IMG/VR virus record: IMGVR_UViG_3300045988_176633
Direction: 5' to 3' (one strand)
Length of the DNA: 64,000 nt
Source: a virus
A program made the translations under genes and the position numbers. Under the pieces are notes generated by a model that saw nothing but the letters and a program-made list of their open reading frames with translations, made no database searches and was not told the DNA's origin. Positions 36,434-57,711 of the stretch are shown piece by piece; position 1 is the stretch's first letter, and each line of letters begins with the position of its first letter.

Positions 36434-38080
36434 TTATCGAATTAAGAATCCAGTGAAGAACAATTTATTGATCTCGTTGTTCACACGAATCTTATAAGTT
36501 ACAAACCAAGCATCTTCTTTTTGCGTCACTACAACATCTTGAAAAGCTAGAATTAAATTATCACTATCTTCAGTTGCGACACGACTCTGTAAATAGAATG
36601 TGGTCCAATTTTTAACATCTCCTGCAGATAATGTATTTACATTTACACCATTTTCCTGACTTAGAAGGTCTATTTCTGCATTTACGACTAATTCACGGTT
36701 AATCTGAGCAACGATTCTCATGAACTGAATGGAGAACGATTGTCCCTTCGCATTAAATAGGCTTGTATTGTCTTGTAACGTATTGATACCTTGCAAGACA
36801 ACAAATTTTCTTGTGAAAGCATTTTTTATCGTTACTAAAACACCATATTTTAACGCTTGCTTCTTATCGTCATCCGATAGAATGTGCTTAACACGATCAA
36901 TACCAATCGATTTGTTGGTTACTGGTACATAAGGAGGCTTTCCAGATACACGACCTACAATTGCAGCCAAATTATACATTACTGTCCACCAACGATAGCC
37001 TACACTAGACTGTTCAGTGTTCAATCCAACATTACCATGAACCAAAACAATCTTATCACTGTCAAATCCTTGAGCAAGAGTGATTGAATCATTGAATTGA
37101 GTAGCTTCTCCGTAACCACCTACATACAAGAAATGATCAAATTTCGCCGTGAAATTCAAGTGAGTGATCACTTTCTTTGTAATAGTTGAATTAGCATTAA
37201 CTCCATATTGGTCAGTAAAAACAATATTGTAATCCAAATCTGTGATCTGACTTAAAACAGAATCTACATCCGTTGCATTGTATGTTTCTGTACCACCTGT
37301 TGAAATTTGGTAAGCACCTGTAAGACTAGAAACATCACTTTCAATCACAACACCCTTTGCATCGCCATCGCCACCTACAACAGTATCTGTTTCATTGAAA
37401 GCAAAATATGCGTTAAAATTAGGATCTGATTTAGCCCAATCAATCAATGTTTGAACATTGTTAAATTCAGGAGATTCAACCATAAGTTGAGGAGAAGACT
37501 GAAGAGCTGTTTCCTCACCATAAGGCAATCCATCTTCCGCTAAGCCAGTGAATGTACCTTTCCAAATCTGGAAAATCCACTTGTTAGGATCAATACTACC
37601 AGCTTTAATGCTATATCCATAACCAGAAACGAGATTGTCTCCTTCCAAAGTACCGTTACCCCATAAACCTTCGTCTCTTGTATTGATAGCAAATGTACTA
37701 CCACCTCCAGTGGTAAATTTCATTTCACTAGGAGTAGTGGTGCAAGCACGAACATAATATAACTCAGAAATACCAATTGCTGCAGGATTACTAGGATCTG
37801 GTGTGAAAAGAGCTTCTGAAATCTTCCAGAACATACCACCTTTTACAAAACTTCTGAAATCAGCTAAATTCAGGAATGTATAGATAGCGTCTTGTCCATT
37901 AGCTAGTTCACCATTAATACCAGCACCACCGCCATATTTGGCACCAAAAACACCTGTATCGATGATCAAAACTTTACCATAGTCCAAATTTCTAGCAGGA
38001 TTGTTCTCACCTGAGACAATCGTACTATATGCACCTGGCAAAGAGATCTGTCGATTATTAAAATAAAACGACGTTGACAT
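36434..38080 (-). CDS. contractile tail sheath protein
   Basis: 548 aa. N-terminal ISLPGAYSTIVSG resembles the conserved PGVY start of sheath proteins. Followed by a tube-sized gene. Preceded by a 210-nt leader. Confidence 0.7.
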   Translation of the reverse strand: MSTSFYFNNRQISLPGAYSTIVSGENNPARNLDYGKVLIIDTGVFGAKYGGGAGINGELANGQDAIYTFLNLADFRSFVKGGMFWKISEALFTPDPSNPAAIGISELYYVRACTTTPSEMKFTTGGGSTFAINTRDEGLWGNGTLEGDNLVSGYGYSIKAGSIDPNKWIFQIWKGTFTGLAEDGLPYGEETALQSSPQLMVESPEFNNVQTLIDWAKSDPNFNAYFAFNETDTVVGGDGDAKGVVIESDVSSLTGAYQISTGGTETYNATDVDSVLSQITDLDYNIVFTDQYGVNANSTITKKVITHLNFTAKFDHFLYVGGYGEATQFNDSITLAQGFDSDKIVLVHGNVGLNTEQSSVGYRWWTVMYNLAAIVGRVSGKPPYVPVTNKSIGIDRVKHILSDDDKKQALKYGVLVTIKNAFTRKFVVLQGINTLQDNTSLFNAKGQSFSIQFMRIVAQINRELVVNAEIDLLSQENGVNVNTLSAGDVKNWTTFYLQSRVATEDSDNLILAFQDVVVTQKEDAWFVTYKIRVNNEINKLFFTGFLIR

Positions 38081-38290
38081 AATTTTTATTAATTTTAATA
38101 AATTTTACGAATTCATTATTTACAATAAAAATTGAAGGCACACTTTCGAGTTCTATCCTTGTAAAACTCAGATAAATCTCGAATCTTCCCACACCTTTTG
38201 CGCTTCTTGGTATTCATTTCTCACTTATTGTAAAATTTTACTCTAAATATAGATACAATTTTCTCATCTACAAAATAAAAGGCAGATTTT

Positions 38291-38983
38291 TCACGCCTTT
38301 ATCTCAGATTCAACGCCCGGAATAGTTTTCGTAACTTTTCCATCTGTCATAAAAGTAGCTTCTAAACCAGCTTTTTCAAAGATTACCTTACCTAATAAAT
38401 TAGGATTGATAAGACTTGGTACCATGTTATCCATTGAAACATTTAAACCAATAGACTTGATAAAAATAGGAGTTGGAATTAAGTTTGTCTCAGCCATAAG
38501 CTCTTTCACGGTGAAATCAATAGTGATGAACTTCTGTGCTAACAAATCGTAAGAAGCAAGTAACAATGAATATAAAGTCTCTGACATTATGATTGATTGT
38601 AACATGTTCACTCCCATACATAGAATTTCAAAATTACTTGACCTAGAGTCTCTATATAAATAACCTCCTGTTGAATTAAATCCTGAAATCTTTCCTATTG
38701 AATTATCTGGTCCATTTGATTTCCCTGGTTCTCTAATTACATAACACGGTAAACCAGTCTTATCTTTGGGATATTCCATAACAACTTTTATGTTATTAGG
38801 ATTATCTTGATTTCGAGAATACATAGATAATGCTTGTGTATAAAAATCAAAAGCACCGTCTTTTACTCCAAAAAACATCTTGTATAAGAATCTATCTTCT
38901 TCGTTGACTGTTTCGACTGAATCTTGATAAATATAATTTATAAGATTAACCACTAATTGTTTAATTTCTATTATAGGTATCAT
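38291..38983 (-). CDS. hypothetical protein, neck/tail-completion region (by position)
   Basis: 230-aa ORF between the capsid and sheath modules. Confidence 0.45.
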   Translation of the reverse strand: MIPIIEIKQLVVNLINYIYQDSVETVNEEDRFLYKMFFGVKDGAFDFYTQALSMYSRNQDNPNNIKVVMEYPKDKTGLPCYVIREPGKSNGPDNSIGKISGFNSTGGYLYRDSRSSNFEILCMGVNMLQSIIMSETLYSLLLASYDLLAQKFITIDFTVKELMAETNLIPTPIFIKSIGLNVSMDNMVPSLINPNLLGKVIFEKAGLEATFMTDGKVTKTIPGVESEIKA

Positions 38984-38987
38984 ACGA

Positions 38988-39758
38988 TCATATATTTTCT
39001 AAAAAGTTATCAATAGCTATTTGTGCTACACGACTTATATCAGCTCGTTCCAATGCTTTATCCATCAATTTTTTAGGTGGTATACCTCCGTTCCACCAAC
39101 TAGCTGGACTAGATTTATCACTAACACGTCTAAACGTAAAGTAACCACTCCTAACTTCTTTATCAGTAGACTGTATATTGACTTTTACCAATCCTTGATA
39201 TTTAGGAGATTTATGCATATACTCAGGTACAACTAAACCAGGTACGTTAATTTCTTTTCTGATCCCTGGTAGTTTGTGTTGTTCAGGTAAATCAGTTGTT
39301 TTTAAAGGTCTTGTTGATTGTTTGGCAATATTATAAATTTCTTTAGGCATGATAGAAGAGAAGATACCTGATTCAGCGACTGCTTCTGGTGTCGCATGTC
39401 TAAATGGTATGGTTAAATACCAACCTCCGTCTTTTTTCTCTTTGACTTTATCAGATCTCTGAAATCCTATTTTCTCATCAAAAGGACTGGCACCTTCTTC
39501 AATCATGATAGCAAGAGGACTTTCTCTTGCCATCAAACCAAAAACAACCTCCATACCAGAAGGTCGTTCCATGAACATTGCACGTTTATATTCAGATCGA
39601 GATTTTTTTAACTCTCGATTGACTAGATCCTCCCAACGAGTGGAATATTCTACTATAACTTTATCAATGATAGATGTCCCAAGAATCTCCGTTTGATTTG
39701 CTGTTAAAGAAAATTCTTCAACTAAATCACTTAAATCTATGTTTATAGGTAGGATCAT
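38988..39758 (-). CDS. hypothetical protein, head-tail joining region (by position)
   Basis: 256-aa ORF. Confidence 0.45.
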   Translation of the reverse strand: MILPINIDLSDLVEEFSLTANQTEILGTSIIDKVIVEYSTRWEDLVNRELKKSRSEYKRAMFMERPSGMEVVFGLMARESPLAIMIEEGASPFDEKIGFQRSDKVKEKKDGGWYLTIPFRHATPEAVAESGIFSSIMPKEIYNIAKQSTRPLKTTDLPEQHKLPGIRKEINVPGLVVPEYMHKSPKYQGLVKVNIQSTDKEVRSGYFTFRRVSDKSSPASWWNGGIPPKKLMDKALERADISRVAQIAIDNFLENI

Positions 39759-49013: not shown

Positions 49014-49451
49014 TCAATCGTTTACACAAACATTATCCGCGTAATAACTATGATCACTTTCTATTTCAATAGAATAAGAAAAATCCGGAAAATTTTCCTT
49101 TGGTATTTTTAAAATAGAAGAGACTTTACCTCGTTGATTTTTTCTTAATTGTAGGAGCATATTAGGTTTAATTTTACTTACTTCTAAAGACCTACCATTA
49201 GCTAAAATAATTTTACTACTTTCGTGAATCCTATGAATCCCTTCTTCTTTGATCTTTACATCGTCTTCAAAAACAAAATAAAGATCAAAGATTTCTTGAT
49301 TGAAATCTAAGATCAAAGATTTGTTGATTGATTTTACTTTTTTGTATCTATTTTTATGAGTTAAAACCAAGTCACCAACTTTTATATCTTTTATCCATTT
49401 AGGACCATCAAAGGTCTGTATTTCTGTATAACCACTGTAAAATTGACTCAT
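49014..49451 (-). CDS. free-standing degenerate Hint (intein-like) domain protein
   Basis: YTEIQTFDGPKWIKDIKVGDLVLT aligns with Hint block A, but Phe occupies the nucleophile position. The C-terminus SHSYYADNVCVND resembles blocks F/G with HN replaced by ND. No exteins are present. Confidence 0.55.
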   Translation of the reverse strand: MSQFYSGYTEIQTFDGPKWIKDIKVGDLVLTHKNRYKKVKSINKSLILDFNQEIFDLYFVFEDDVKIKEEGIHRIHESSKIILANGRSLEVSKIKPNMLLQLRKNQRGKVSSILKIPKENFPDFSYSIEIESDHSYYADNVCVND

Positions 49452-50395
49452 ACTAAAAATTTTTTATCCCCAACTATTATTGTTACCTTTGATTTTCTCT
49501 CGACCTTAGATTTATAATCTTTAGGTGGAACGAATGTTTGCAATTTATCATCCCAAACATAATTATCTGGAATATAACGAGTTGAACAACGACAAAACGG
49601 GTGAACTGGTCCGACAACTGGTTTCCAATCCTTGCTCTTTCTACCAATATTATCACCGTTTTGAATAAGTTCTGATAATTTGAAGATTCTAGGTTTTGAA
49701 CCTGCACCTGCTGTAGTATAGAGGTTTAGGCAAAACCGACACGCTCCTGGATAAACTTCTTTGTATACTCTTGTATCTAATCCATGTTGATTGATTATCA
49801 TTTGAGCATTCCCCAATTCATAAATGTTTTGGAACTCAGTTTCGACTATCCGTCCCCAATCTCGATTCCAATCTTTCAACTGATTACCGATATTACTTAC
49901 GATACCTTGGACTGATCTTTTTTCTAAAACACCTAATTCGTGTTCTCTTTTGATTGTTGAAAGCTCTTCTATCCGACGATTTTCGACAAGATTTTTTATC
50001 TCTTGCTCTGAAACAGAATTCGAAAGGGTTTTCTTTACCCTTTCTCCCATTCCTTTGATATAAGAATAACTTCTTGTAGCTGCAGCTTGATATTCGTACA
50101 ATTCTCTTTTAGAAGGTTGTTTGTATTGTTTTCTAGCTGTGTATTGTTTTATATCTGTATAGTTTAAGGTTTGTAATTGTTTTGGCGTTAAAACAGCAGA
50201 TAACCTACCAAATAAATATGCTTGCCAATAAGGAGGGATCAATTTTAGATCTTTCCAATCAAAATGAAATTCATCGAGTACTTTCTTATCATTATCAGTT
50301 AGGAATTCTTTCCCTAAGATATCAGCGATAGTCCTAGCTAGACGATAATCTACAATCGTAAACAATCTCTGTATGTCATCTGGTGTAAAAATCAT
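49448..50395 (-). CDS. head morphogenesis protein, Mu F / SPP1 gp7 family
   Basis: ACRFCLNLY...GPVHPFCRCSTRYIP matches the conserved H-P-x-C-R-C end of the MuF domain. Lies after the portal gene, separated from it by one small ORF (50392..50595). Confidence 0.75.
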   Translation of the reverse strand: MIFTPDDIQRLFTIVDYRLARTIADILGKEFLTDNDKKVLDEFHFDWKDLKLIPPYWQAYLFGRLSAVLTPKQLQTLNYTDIKQYTARKQYKQPSKRELYEYQAAATRSYSYIKGMGERVKKTLSNSVSEQEIKNLVENRRIEELSTIKREHELGVLEKRSVQGIVSNIGNQLKDWNRDWGRIVETEFQNIYELGNAQMIINQHGLDTRVYKEVYPGACRFCLNLYTTAGAGSKPRIFKLSELIQNGDNIGRKSKDWKPVVGPVHPFCRCSTRYIPDNYVWDDKLQTFVPPKDYKSKVERKSKVTIIVGDKKFLV

Positions 50396-55574: not shown

Positions 55575-55844
55575 TTATTTCTTTCCTTCTAATTTTGCAA
55601 TCTCTTTCGCTTTGGGATCACGAGCTGTAGCATAAGCTCTCATTTGAACCTCTGTCATTTGGTGCTCACTAGAATTCTTTGACTTATCACCAAACTGATT
55701 GAAATTCTCACCCAATTTATTTACACGACTAACTAAACTACTTAATCTTTCAAGATCTTTTGATGATGCATCGTCTTGCCAATTATCACCATATTTATTC
55801 ATGAGGTTTAAACGTTCTTTACTGATCTCTCCAATGATCCTCAT
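55575..55844 (-). CDS. hypothetical small protein
   Basis: 89-aa ORF. An alternative ATG lies at 55802. Confidence 0.45.
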   Translation of the reverse strand: MRIIGEISKERLNLMNKYGDNWQDDASSKDLERLSSLVSRVNKLGENFNQFGDKSKNSSEHQMTEVQMRAYATARDPKAKEIAKLEGKK

Positions 55845-56550
55845 CTTTACGATCTTTGTATTGAGCCGCTGTTACCTGACGTAACAAAGGAGCTTCTTTT
55901 TTCGAGCTCTCCATCCAATCAACTTTCAAACCATTCTCCTTCGCATATTTCATTACCTTGCTAATCCTCTTTTGAGTATCGTACATAGAGGCTTGAATTT
56001 TACCATCCTTTATATGAAAGGTTTTTTGATCGATTTTTATACTTGAAGGGATTTTCTCTGAACTTTCTTCTTTATTAGTATTTTTAATACCTTTGGGTTT
56101 TAATCTCCAGCCCTTCTCGGTCTTGATATAGAGTTTTCCACCATAAGTCTTTTCTGTACCAATAGGTTCAGCTTTACGTGCTTTTTCGATAACATCGTTA
56201 TTGACTGGCAATCCAACGATACCTTTAAAACGGTTTAATGCTGTATCAGCAAACACGATTTGTTTCGATTTCATAATTGAACCAAACTCTTCTTTTTCTA
56301 AGGGTTCAATTTGACATTCACGATAATAAACTACTGATTTAACTAAATCATTATCAACAACAATCGCACGATTCAAAGAAACAAAATCAGCGGCAGCGCA
56401 TGATTTTGAAAATTCATCCATTGAATTTTGATTGTTGATGATCTCTTGATTGAATTTCAAGACTTGATCTGCAGTGAAGGTTTCATAACCATTCTTAGCT
56501 ATAAAAGCATCGAATTCCTTTTTGGTAAACTCTTTTATCGTACCATTCAT
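55819..56550 (-). CDS. hypothetical protein, paralogue of 54423..54986
   Basis: 243 aa. See the shared blocks listed for 54423..54986. Confidence 0.55.
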   Translation of the reverse strand: MNGTIKEFTKKEFDAFIAKNGYETFTADQVLKFNQEIINNQNSMDEFSKSCAAADFVSLNRAIVVDNDLVKSVVYYRECQIEPLEKEEFGSIMKSKQIVFADTALNRFKGIVGLPVNNDVIEKARKAEPIGTEKTYGGKLYIKTEKGWRLKPKGIKNTNKEESSEKIPSSIKIDQKTFHIKDGKIQASMYDTQKRISKVMKYAKENGLKVDWMESSKKEAPLLRQVTAAQYKDRKDEDHWRDQ

Positions 56551-56606
56551 GATTCTAATGATTTTTAATTATCAAATTTTACTGTCATAAAGATCGTGGT
56601 CTTTTT

Positions 56607-57179
56607 TCAATCAACAACCAATTCTCCAAGATTATTTAACTCCAAGATACAAGTCAATAATTCGTTGATTGTCTTTGATTCTCCTAATTCTGTGGTTCTT
56701 ACCTTTAATGCTTTAGCCAAGTGAATTATAGAAACTTTCATTTTCTCAAGATCATTGATTTGCTCTTTTGAAGAAGAAAGTTGTTGTTCTAAGGATAAGA
56801 CCTTAAACTCAAGGTCTTTAATCATCTCGTCTTTGTCGATAGTATTTTCTGATTCACCTTCATCTAGGTTTTTCAACGGTTTTAATACTTTGTCACCAAC
56901 AACAAGATAACTATCTTTTTTAGGAAGTTTAGTCTCTATCACTTCTTTACCTAATTCCTCAGCTACTTCTTTTAAGACACTGATTGATCTCTTTCCTCTT
57001 ACTTCGTTTTTGACTAAATAGAGGCCTTTGAGATTTTTGACAATAGTCTTTCCTTCAATCGTGTTGATCACCGCTTTCTTTATTCCTTGTTGTTTTACGA
57101 TCTCAACAACAGTGCCAGCGTTTTTCTCTCCATTCTCATCAATAAACTTTACAACTTTCCCAGCTTTAACAAAGTCCAT
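56607..57179 (-). CDS. hypothetical protein (KOW/SH3-like N-terminus, coiled-coil C-terminus)
   Basis: 190-aa ORF. Confidence 0.5.
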   Translation of the reverse strand: MDFVKAGKVVKFIDENGEKNAGTVVEIVKQQGIKKAVINTIEGKTIVKNLKGLYLVKNEVRGKRSISVLKEVAEELGKEVIETKLPKKDSYLVVGDKVLKPLKNLDEGESENTIDKDEMIKDLEFKVLSLEQQLSSSKEQINDLEKMKVSIIHLAKALKVRTTELGESKTINELLTCILELNNLGELVVD

Positions 57180-57181
57180 AA

Positions 57182-57415
57182 TTATATCGTATTTAAATTT
57201 TTAAAACGTTTTCTTACATGATGTATCTTACTTTTAATAGTACCTAAAGGTACTTCAAAAATCTTAGAAAGCTCTTCGTAAGTATAACCATTAGCATATC
57301 CTAATATGATCTTTCTGTCCCTAGGATTGAATGTATCAAGGATTCGAATGATTGTATCATATTCTTCGTTTACTTCATTTTGTTGATCTGAATACAATTT
57401 ATTCAACTCATTCAT
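57182..57415 (-). CDS. sigma-70 region 4 (HTH) polypeptide: C-terminal half of a split ECF-like sigma factor
   Basis: RDRKIILGYANGYTYEELSKIFEVPLGTIKSKIHHVRKRF matches region 4.2. The ATG shares one base with the upstream TAA (TAATG). Confidence 0.7.
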   Translation of the reverse strand: MNELNKLYSDQQNEVNEEYDTIIRILDTFNPRDRKIILGYANGYTYEELSKIFEVPLGTIKSKIHHVRKRFKNLNTI

Positions 57416-57711
57416 TACACCTTCTTCTTCTTGACTACAAGTATCTCTCTCTTCTTAGAGGAAAGTAGGAGGTTTAAAGTACTATTTTTAGCGATAGTAA
57501 CTAACCAACTCCTTAAACCACCAGATCCTTCGTATACATATTTATCTTCAGACTTCAACGCTTTTACAAAAGTGTTTGAAACAATATCGTCTATATCTTC
57601 ATCACTTAGGTCTTGATAATATCGTTTCTTCAAGTAGTTTATTAAGAAATTCCTGTAATCATTGAAATTCTTTTCAAGATCTTTCTTTATACTAAACCCC
57701 TCCATTTTCAA
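57415..57711 (-). CDS. sigma-70 region 2 polypeptide: N-terminal half of a split ECF-like sigma factor
   Basis: DIDDIVSNTFVKALKSEDKY...LRSWLVTIAKNSTLNLL matches regions 2.1-2.4. Confidence 0.7.
   Translation of the reverse strand: MKMEGFSIKKDLEKNFNDYRNFLINYLKKRYYQDLSDEDIDDIVSNTFVKALKSEDKYVYEGSGGLRSWLVTIAKNSTLNLLLSSKKREILVVKKKKV

Follow-up and report, generated by a model that had tools for sequence, protein, structure and literature searches.

A putative ECF-type sigma factor gene of a phage, probably split by a two-base insertion in the interdomain linker

The locus and its genomic setting

Two short open reading frames (ORFs) lie one after the other on the minus strand of a stretch of 64,000 nucleotides from IMG/VR virus record IMGVR_UViG_3300045988_176633, which we refer to as the window. 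ORF1 carries the sigma2 half of a sigma factor, and ORF2 carries the rest of the linker and the sigma4 half (Table 1); the TAA stop of ORF1 (57417..57415) and the ATG of ORF2 (57415..57413) have one A in common. An earlier sequence-only reading of this locus had described the resulting TAATG overlap and placed the second ORF in the -1 frame, and both points were confirmed from the sequence, on the minus strand. Its count of 13 open codons 5' of the ORF2 ATG is exact, the frame being bounded there by a TAA (57457..57455), and the AAG AAG AAG AAG GTG that it noted ahead of the ORF1 stop is present as described. The start codon used by relatives is the ATG at 57705 (the ORF of one of them, L004, begins with MEEFSIKK and has 173 aa), and this ATG is likely to be the true start of ORF1, giving a product of 96 aa.

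The gene order at the locus is a gene of 364 aa, a gap of 27 nt, the sigma gene, 2 nt, and a gene of 190 aa. As the sole terminator-like hairpins near the locus are found upstream of the 364-aa gene, these three genes are probably co-transcribed. A scan for sigma-70 promoters around the locus gave nothing above shuffled expectation. No anti-sigma factor or other partner was recognised among the neighbours; the 190-aa, 364-aa and 243-aa proteins have no significant match in PHROGs, Pfam or NCBIfam. By eye, the 190-aa protein looks beta-rich at its N-terminus and coiled-coil-like at its C-terminus; a functional link with the sigma factor is possible. We also examined a promoter-like motif, TTGTTGCTC...N16...TTTAyGACATAAT, which we take to be unlike typical ECF -35/-10 elements, and found no link between it and the phage sigma factor. 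An apparent copy of this element, GGTTGTTGATTG...GATCTTTATGACAGTAAAAT, lies between the 190-aa and 243-aa genes and is conserved in the nearest virus record (hereafter G001).

Table 1. Positions of the features of the sigma locus, and of other elements of the window mentioned in the text
Feature	Position	Strand	Remarks
ORF1, sigma2 half	57415..57711	minus	98 aa from TTG; 96 aa from ATG at 57705
ORF2, rest of linker and sigma4	57182..57415	minus	77 aa; starts at an internal Met (M99)
Putative ancestral single ECF-type sigma gene, span	57182..57711	minus	173 aa from ATG 57705 in intact relatives
(AG)4 tract	57445..57452	minus	(AG)3 in relatives; extra AG is a frameshifting insertion in pairwise and multiple alignments
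TAATG stop/start overlap	57413..57417	minus	frameshift product; intact alleles read GGT GTA ATG in frame
TAA in the ORF2 frame	57455..57457	minus	13 codons 5' of the ORF2 ATG; limits the site of any frame-restoring event
190-aa gene	56607..57179	minus	
Apparent copy of promoter-like element	56560..56600	minus	
Gene split into 243-aa and 89-aa ORFs	55575..56550	minus	two genes downstream of sigma
Extra G	55839/55840		private to the window lineage
315-aa ORF	49448..50395	minus	matches ends of a 657-aa ORF of G001 (37731..39704)

The window has a G+C content of about 33%, with nearly all ORFs on one strand, and encodes a portal protein, a holin and very large structural-type ORFs. The nearest cultured relatives of the portal protein are found in Bacteroides phages of the DAC/SJC group and in a Chryseobacterium phage, and the record closest to it comes from an uncultured phage in human faeces; related contigs of about 95-103 kb come from human-gut metagenomes. 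A Shine-Dalgarno-like motif is found upstream of three of the 54 genes, which is a depletion relative to the background of 10%, and the regions upstream of start codons in the window are A/T-rich; we presume that this depletion fits a Bacteroidota host. The window probably belongs to an uncultivated human-gut phage of about 100 kb that infects a Bacteroidota host.

Domain content and family assignment

ORF1 matches Sigma70_r2 (PF04542; E = 1e-9, 38.5 bits, cut-off 24), whereas ORF2 matches Sigma70_r4_2 (PF08281; E = 2e-9, 37.4 bits, cut-off 25.7) and Sigma70_r4 (PF04545; 26.3 bits, cut-off 24.1). As these matches clear the curated Pfam cut-offs they are not due to chance, and the region 2 and region 4.2 that had been read from the 98-aa and 77-aa translations both stand. 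Consecutive parts of phrog_1740, annotated as "RNA polymerase sigma factor", are matched by ORF1 and ORF2.

The corresponding protein of G001, which is intact, matches the NCBIfam model TIGR02937 (sigma70-ECF) at 71.2 bits against a cut-off of 42.9, in one stretch that spans residues 13-170 of the protein and positions 4-162 of the 165 in the model. Solved ECF sigma factors, namely RpoE (1or7/6jbq), SigH and SigL, likewise align with the intact protein in a single stretch. We built an AlphaFold2 model of the intact protein from an alignment of 11 sequences (mean pLDDT 71.7); two helical domains (residues 8-85 and 115-171) are confidently predicted and are separated by a linker of low confidence (residues 86-114, pLDDT <50), and the top fold matches of the model in the PDB are all ECF sigma factors. 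Members of the ECF family are single chains of about 160-200 aa with no regions 1.1 or 3. The orthologues, at 170-175 aa, are chains of this kind, and the window allele, in pieces of 96/98 and 77 aa, is not. On these sequence matches and the predicted fold, the intact locus is a putative single-chain ECF-type (group 4) gene of the sigma-70 family; this assignment is part of an overall explanation of the locus, developed below, that we consider likely as a whole. The intact gene is an uncharacterised member of this well-known family.

Relatives carry one uninterrupted gene

We found that G001, which is 97% identical to the window over 2.3 kb, has one ORF of 175 aa at the same locus. In the alignment of the two (window, AAGAAGAGAGAGAT; G001, AAGAAGAGAGAT), two bases, AG, are the sole frame-changing difference. 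With (AG)3 the frame is continuous and reads LLSSKKR DTCSQEEEGV MNELNKLY; (AG)3 is found in all intact relatives, in contrast to (AG)4 in the window.

Nine close relatives (L001, L002, L004 and L009-L014) were retrieved when IMG/VR and metagenome contigs were scanned for peptide patterns, by a procedure that is independent of whether the gene is broken. All nine have a single ORF of 170-175 aa, with protein identities of 92-98%. In a large protein collection, the intact 173-aa variants listed account for at least 298 contigs, of which one variant alone has 140 and another 86. Distant homologues (28-36% identity) also have region 2 and region 4 in one chain. Cultured phages have homologues at about 28-30% identity, the Bacteroides phages SJC03 and BS162P1 (about 28%) among them. 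The relatives were drawn from IMG/VR, metagenomes and the protein collection; a distant search by blastn of the locus against GenBank phage DNA gave no match.

Because the majority of alleles are intact and the distant homologues are single-chain, the +AG split is, as judged from these comparisons, a derived state and not a conserved design. The earlier reading had likened the pair of ORFs to natural multi-subunit sigma factors of the SigO-RsoA or gp55/gp33 type and had proposed a comparison with orthologues, in which a single uninterrupted ORF would count against the likeness. A single uninterrupted ORF is what the nine orthologues have, and the intact protein is on the at least 298 contigs counted above. 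That reading had also taken two polypeptides to be the simplest interpretation. This part survives insofar as region 2 and region 4 are in separate ORFs with no slippery site between them; the natural multi-subunit sigma factor that it brought in finds no support.

Among the nine relatives, L014 (on an ERZ836760 contig) has an in-frame deletion of 9 nt that removes three residues of the linker (NEV) and leaves a sigma factor of 170 aa that is otherwise intact. The linker thus tolerates a change of length within one chain.

Recurrence of the insertion

The +AG allele is recorded under at least three sample or assembly accessions (ERR414464/SAMEA2338832, SAMN33693409 and ERZ27299950). Among the contigs that carry it are a megahit k127 contig of ERR414464, a separately built LIJU14-1 scaffold of SAMEA2338832, a ZHAN23-2 scaffold of SAMN33693409 and ERZ27299950, some of which are probably re-assemblies of one sample. 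Exact copies of the 96-aa and 77-aa products are recorded from several sources. In SAMN33693409 and ERZ27299950 the insertion is on a second haplotype, which has six substitutions in the sigma2 half and flanks that are 89-98% identical to those of the window. Because it recurs across samples, assemblers and two haplotypes, +AG probably reflects a real mutation rather than an error of sequencing. The sequencing indel that had been put forward as the trivial alternative was thus half right: the cause of the split is an indel, but one that recurs in this way.

An artefact would mean that the phage in truth has (AG)3 and a single ORF, the extra AG being an error of the contig. It is in keeping with this that the indel sits within a short repeat, and that the lineage of the window has a second private insertion, of 1 bp, at a distance of 1.6 kb. 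However, an identical +AG has been assembled by different assemblers, in different studies and on two haplotypes, and nonsense substitutions of the same gene in other samples (see below) cannot be indel errors. Over the approximately 57 kb shared with G001 we found, moreover, only one other simple frameshift split, in a nearby pair of genes of 243 and 89 aa, which indicates that the assembly is not generally error-ridden. We therefore rejected low assembly quality as a cause and regard an artefact as very unlikely.

The gene of this nearby pair is split by an extra G (window, GATGAGGATC; 17 of 17 relatives, GATGAGATC). The same gene is one ORF in the three relatives covered in full, namely G001 (383 aa), L002 (318 aa) and L004 (419 aa), and is shortened in some other relatives (234, 235 and 270 aa). 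Elsewhere in the window, a 315-aa ORF matches a 657-aa ORF of G001 at both ends, so that G001 has an in-frame insertion of about 340 aa, which could be an intein, a Hint-type element or another mobile insertion.

Effect of the insertion on the two products

The insertion lies within a short (AG)n run, just where the linker between sigma2 and sigma4 begins. ORF1 is native up to R88 and then has an out-of-frame tail of 10 aa; residues 89-98 alone are altered, from DTCSQEEEGV to EILVVKKKKV, followed by TAA. The Met99 of "GVMNELN", which is present in every 173-aa orthologue, becomes the start of ORF2. The break is unusually clean, in that both domains are complete and native residues are lost solely within this stretch of 10 linker residues.

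A likely course of events is that replication slippage in the dinucleotide run would have converted (AG)3 to (AG)4, adding 2 bp just after the last helix of sigma2. ORF1 would thereby retain a complete sigma2 domain, while an acidic stretch of ten linker residues would be replaced by a hydrophobic and basic one before the stop, and the pre-existing internal Met would be turned into the start of a 77-aa linker/sigma4 fragment. The TAATG overlap and the neatness of the split are due to where the insertion fell relative to this Met; the overlap is a by-product of the frameshift and not a feature of design. As a sequence arrangement, it would nevertheless permit translational coupling of ORF1 and ORF2. 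We also considered the (AG)n run as a contingency locus and rejected this, given that so short a tract is involved and that the other disruptions mostly fall elsewhere; it is at most a minor hotspot of slippage.

In principle, a full-length sigma factor could be restored by programmed -1 frameshifting of the ribosome, or by slippage during transcription, in the interval from 57457 to 57415; the frames overlap for 13 codons, so that a -1 shift anywhere within them would give a near-native protein. However, there is no X XXY YYZ heptamer between 57457 and 57415, AAG AAG AAG AAG is no slippery site for a -1 shift, and a homopolymer long enough for slippage by RNA polymerase is absent. Moreover, the single-frame relatives have no use for recoding, and hence conserve nothing that would serve it. 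With neither a slippery sequence nor a conserved arrangement, recoding was rejected and is extremely improbable.

Other disruptions of the sigma gene

Other broken alleles came to light when 77-aa C-terminal fragments that had been called as separate proteins, together with the partners encoded upstream of them, were traced to their contigs. Besides +AG, seven disruptions were verified at the DNA level, which brings the total to at least eight independent events (nonsense, +/-1 and +2), in a sample of broken alleles that is biased by the way in which they were retrieved. Two of the seven are nonsense substitutions, CAA to TAA in the linker (Q93; L092) and TGG to TGA inside sigma2 (W68; L087). 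Three are single-base changes: +G in the linker (L088), -A in the linker (L091) and +T in sigma2 (L085). The remaining two affect one A5 run, with +A in L086, L089 and L090 (the last on another haplotype) and -A in L098 and L099; this run, which shows both changes, is likewise at most a minor slippage hotspot. The frameshift alleles within sigma2 are at codons about 72-76. One +AG locus (L097) and one of the -A loci (L098) do not differ from each other by any substitution in the sigma region and are 99.6-100% identical in their downstream flanks, and therefore represent two independent hits on one background. At the protein level, we further found frameshifts within region 4 (P0006-P0008) and deletions that join the N-terminus of the sigma factor to the C-terminus of the downstream 190-aa gene (P0009 and P0014).

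Altogether there are about 21 truncated forms on about 36 contigs. Compared with the at least 298 contigs that have the intact protein, the broken share is roughly a tenth, where the counts include duplicates and cover part of the cluster members. The commonest of the broken alleles is +AG, found on two backgrounds, and this pattern could mean that it is better tolerated than other breaks.

As a control we used the upstream 364-aa gene, which presents twice the mutational target of the sigma gene; intact copies are present at 25 of 26 loci, and the clusters of this gene in the same database are all full-length. The downstream 190-aa gene is broken in five of about 24 loci (L014, L085, L087, L091 and L099), and the gene that follows is very variable in length. 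The pattern is one of gene-specific decay of an accessory block, not noise. Given so many independent disruptions in natural populations, the sigma gene appears from these alleles to be dispensable, or sometimes disadvantageous.

These observations also bear on whether loss of the sigma factor is favoured in some hosts, where it may be toxic or be sensed by a host defence, so that knock-outs spread repeatedly. The number of independent disruptions, including +AG and -A on backgrounds free of substitutions in the sigma region, would agree with selection of this kind, as would the breaks in the 190-aa neighbour alongside a longer upstream gene that is spared, and the deletion alleles that take out sigma and the 190-aa gene together. 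Relaxed constraint on a dispensable gene predicts the same pattern, however, and the two are inseparable here. We give selected inactivation a low probability and treat it as a refinement of the preferred explanation (a broken, dispensable gene) rather than as a true alternative to it.

Functional consequence of the split

We consider it likely that the locus is one ECF-type sigma gene broken by +AG, and that the result is most probably a loss-of-function or crippled allele of a dispensable gene. Two published findings bear on its activity. Pinto et al. 2020 (PMC7090010) split three orthogonal ECF sigma factors at the linker, which led to loss of function; activity came back only via intein-mediated ligation and disappeared once more when the inteins were catalytically dead. 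Lin et al. (bioRxiv 10.1101/381020) found that the sigma2 and sigma4 domains of an ECF sigma factor are on opposite faces of RNA polymerase and that the connector between them threads the enzyme along the path of a primary sigma factor. Because published split ECFs are inactive, the linker has a role inside RNA polymerase, and alleles that destroy a domain co-occur with +AG, we infer that sigma activity is most likely abolished or severely reduced in the +AG allele.

[quoted passage not shown] Both domains are complete with only 10 linker residues changed, the TAATG overlap favours termination-reinitiation, no other broken allele is as frequent as +AG (on two haplotypes and under at least three sample or assembly accessions), and natural split sigma factors do exist (PMC7826278; bioRxiv 10.64898/2026.10.01.756105). 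However, relatives are single-chain in the great majority of cases, so the split is not conserved, and other alleles ruin sigma2 (the W68 stop and the frameshifts at codons about 72-76) or sigma4, which indicates that the sigma gene can be lost outright. Within the split allele itself, an acidic segment of the linker has been swapped for a hydrophobic and basic one, and there is no sequence variation inside either split haplotype, hence no sign of long persistence. Together with the inactivity of the three engineered linker-split ECFs when not ligated (PMC7090010), these points make a functional two-subunit factor unlikely. A more specific form of this idea, in which +AG is a functional two-piece sigma factor at its birth and its recurrence reflects tolerance or advantage rather than a mutational hotspot alone, is quite unlikely.

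For annotation, it follows from the preferred reading of a broken single gene that the two ORFs are best entered together as one ECF-type sigma gene in a frameshifted allele, and not as a two-subunit system. More broadly, human-gut samples of this phage group show repeated knock-outs of the sigma gene and of the accessory genes that directly follow it. The recurrence of sigma knock-outs suggests that the sigma factor is not essential for the lytic programme, and the group may offer a natural series of knock-outs for the role of a phage-borne ECF sigma factor in Bacteroidota-type hosts. Activity of the split allele, were it found, would offer a rare case from nature of the way in which split sigma factors of the SigO-RsoA or Sig7-8 kind come about; a single slip of 2 bp, together with a pre-existing Met, would then suffice to turn a one-chain ECF into coupled sigma2 and sigma4 subunits.

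Comparison with known sigma factors

The intact orthologue resembles the single-chain ECF sigma factors RpoE/sigmaE of E. coli and SigH and SigL of M. tuberculosis, in that it has sigma2, a disordered linker and sigma4 in about 173 aa. Those chains are uninterrupted; that of the window differs from them by a recent frameshift in the linker. Phage-borne sigma factors of ECF type have previously been annotated, in Agrobacterium phage Atu_ph04 and in Sinorhizobium phage phiM9.

The engineered split ECFs (PMC7090010) are like the phage allele in being cut within the disordered sigma2-sigma4 linker, which leaves two complete domains. They are inactive unless inteins re-ligate the halves, whereas the phage allele comes without a ligation device.

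Among natural systems, SigO-RsoA of B. subtilis is a two-subunit sigma factor (PMC7826278), and Sig7-Sig8 of Tn916, gp55/gp33 of T4 and gp33/gp34 of SPO1 are listed as split sigma factors (bioRxiv 10.64898/2026.10.01.756105). As in the window, these have the functions of region 2 and region 4 on adjacent, separate polypeptides. In all four, however, the genes are separate throughout the family and both are required, whereas here they are fused in the nine unselected relatives, as on the at least 298 contigs with the intact protein. In contrast to systems of the SigO-RsoA type, the split in the window is derived and confined to a minority of the alleles of a gene that is fused elsewhere, and it occurs alongside outright knock-outs of that gene.
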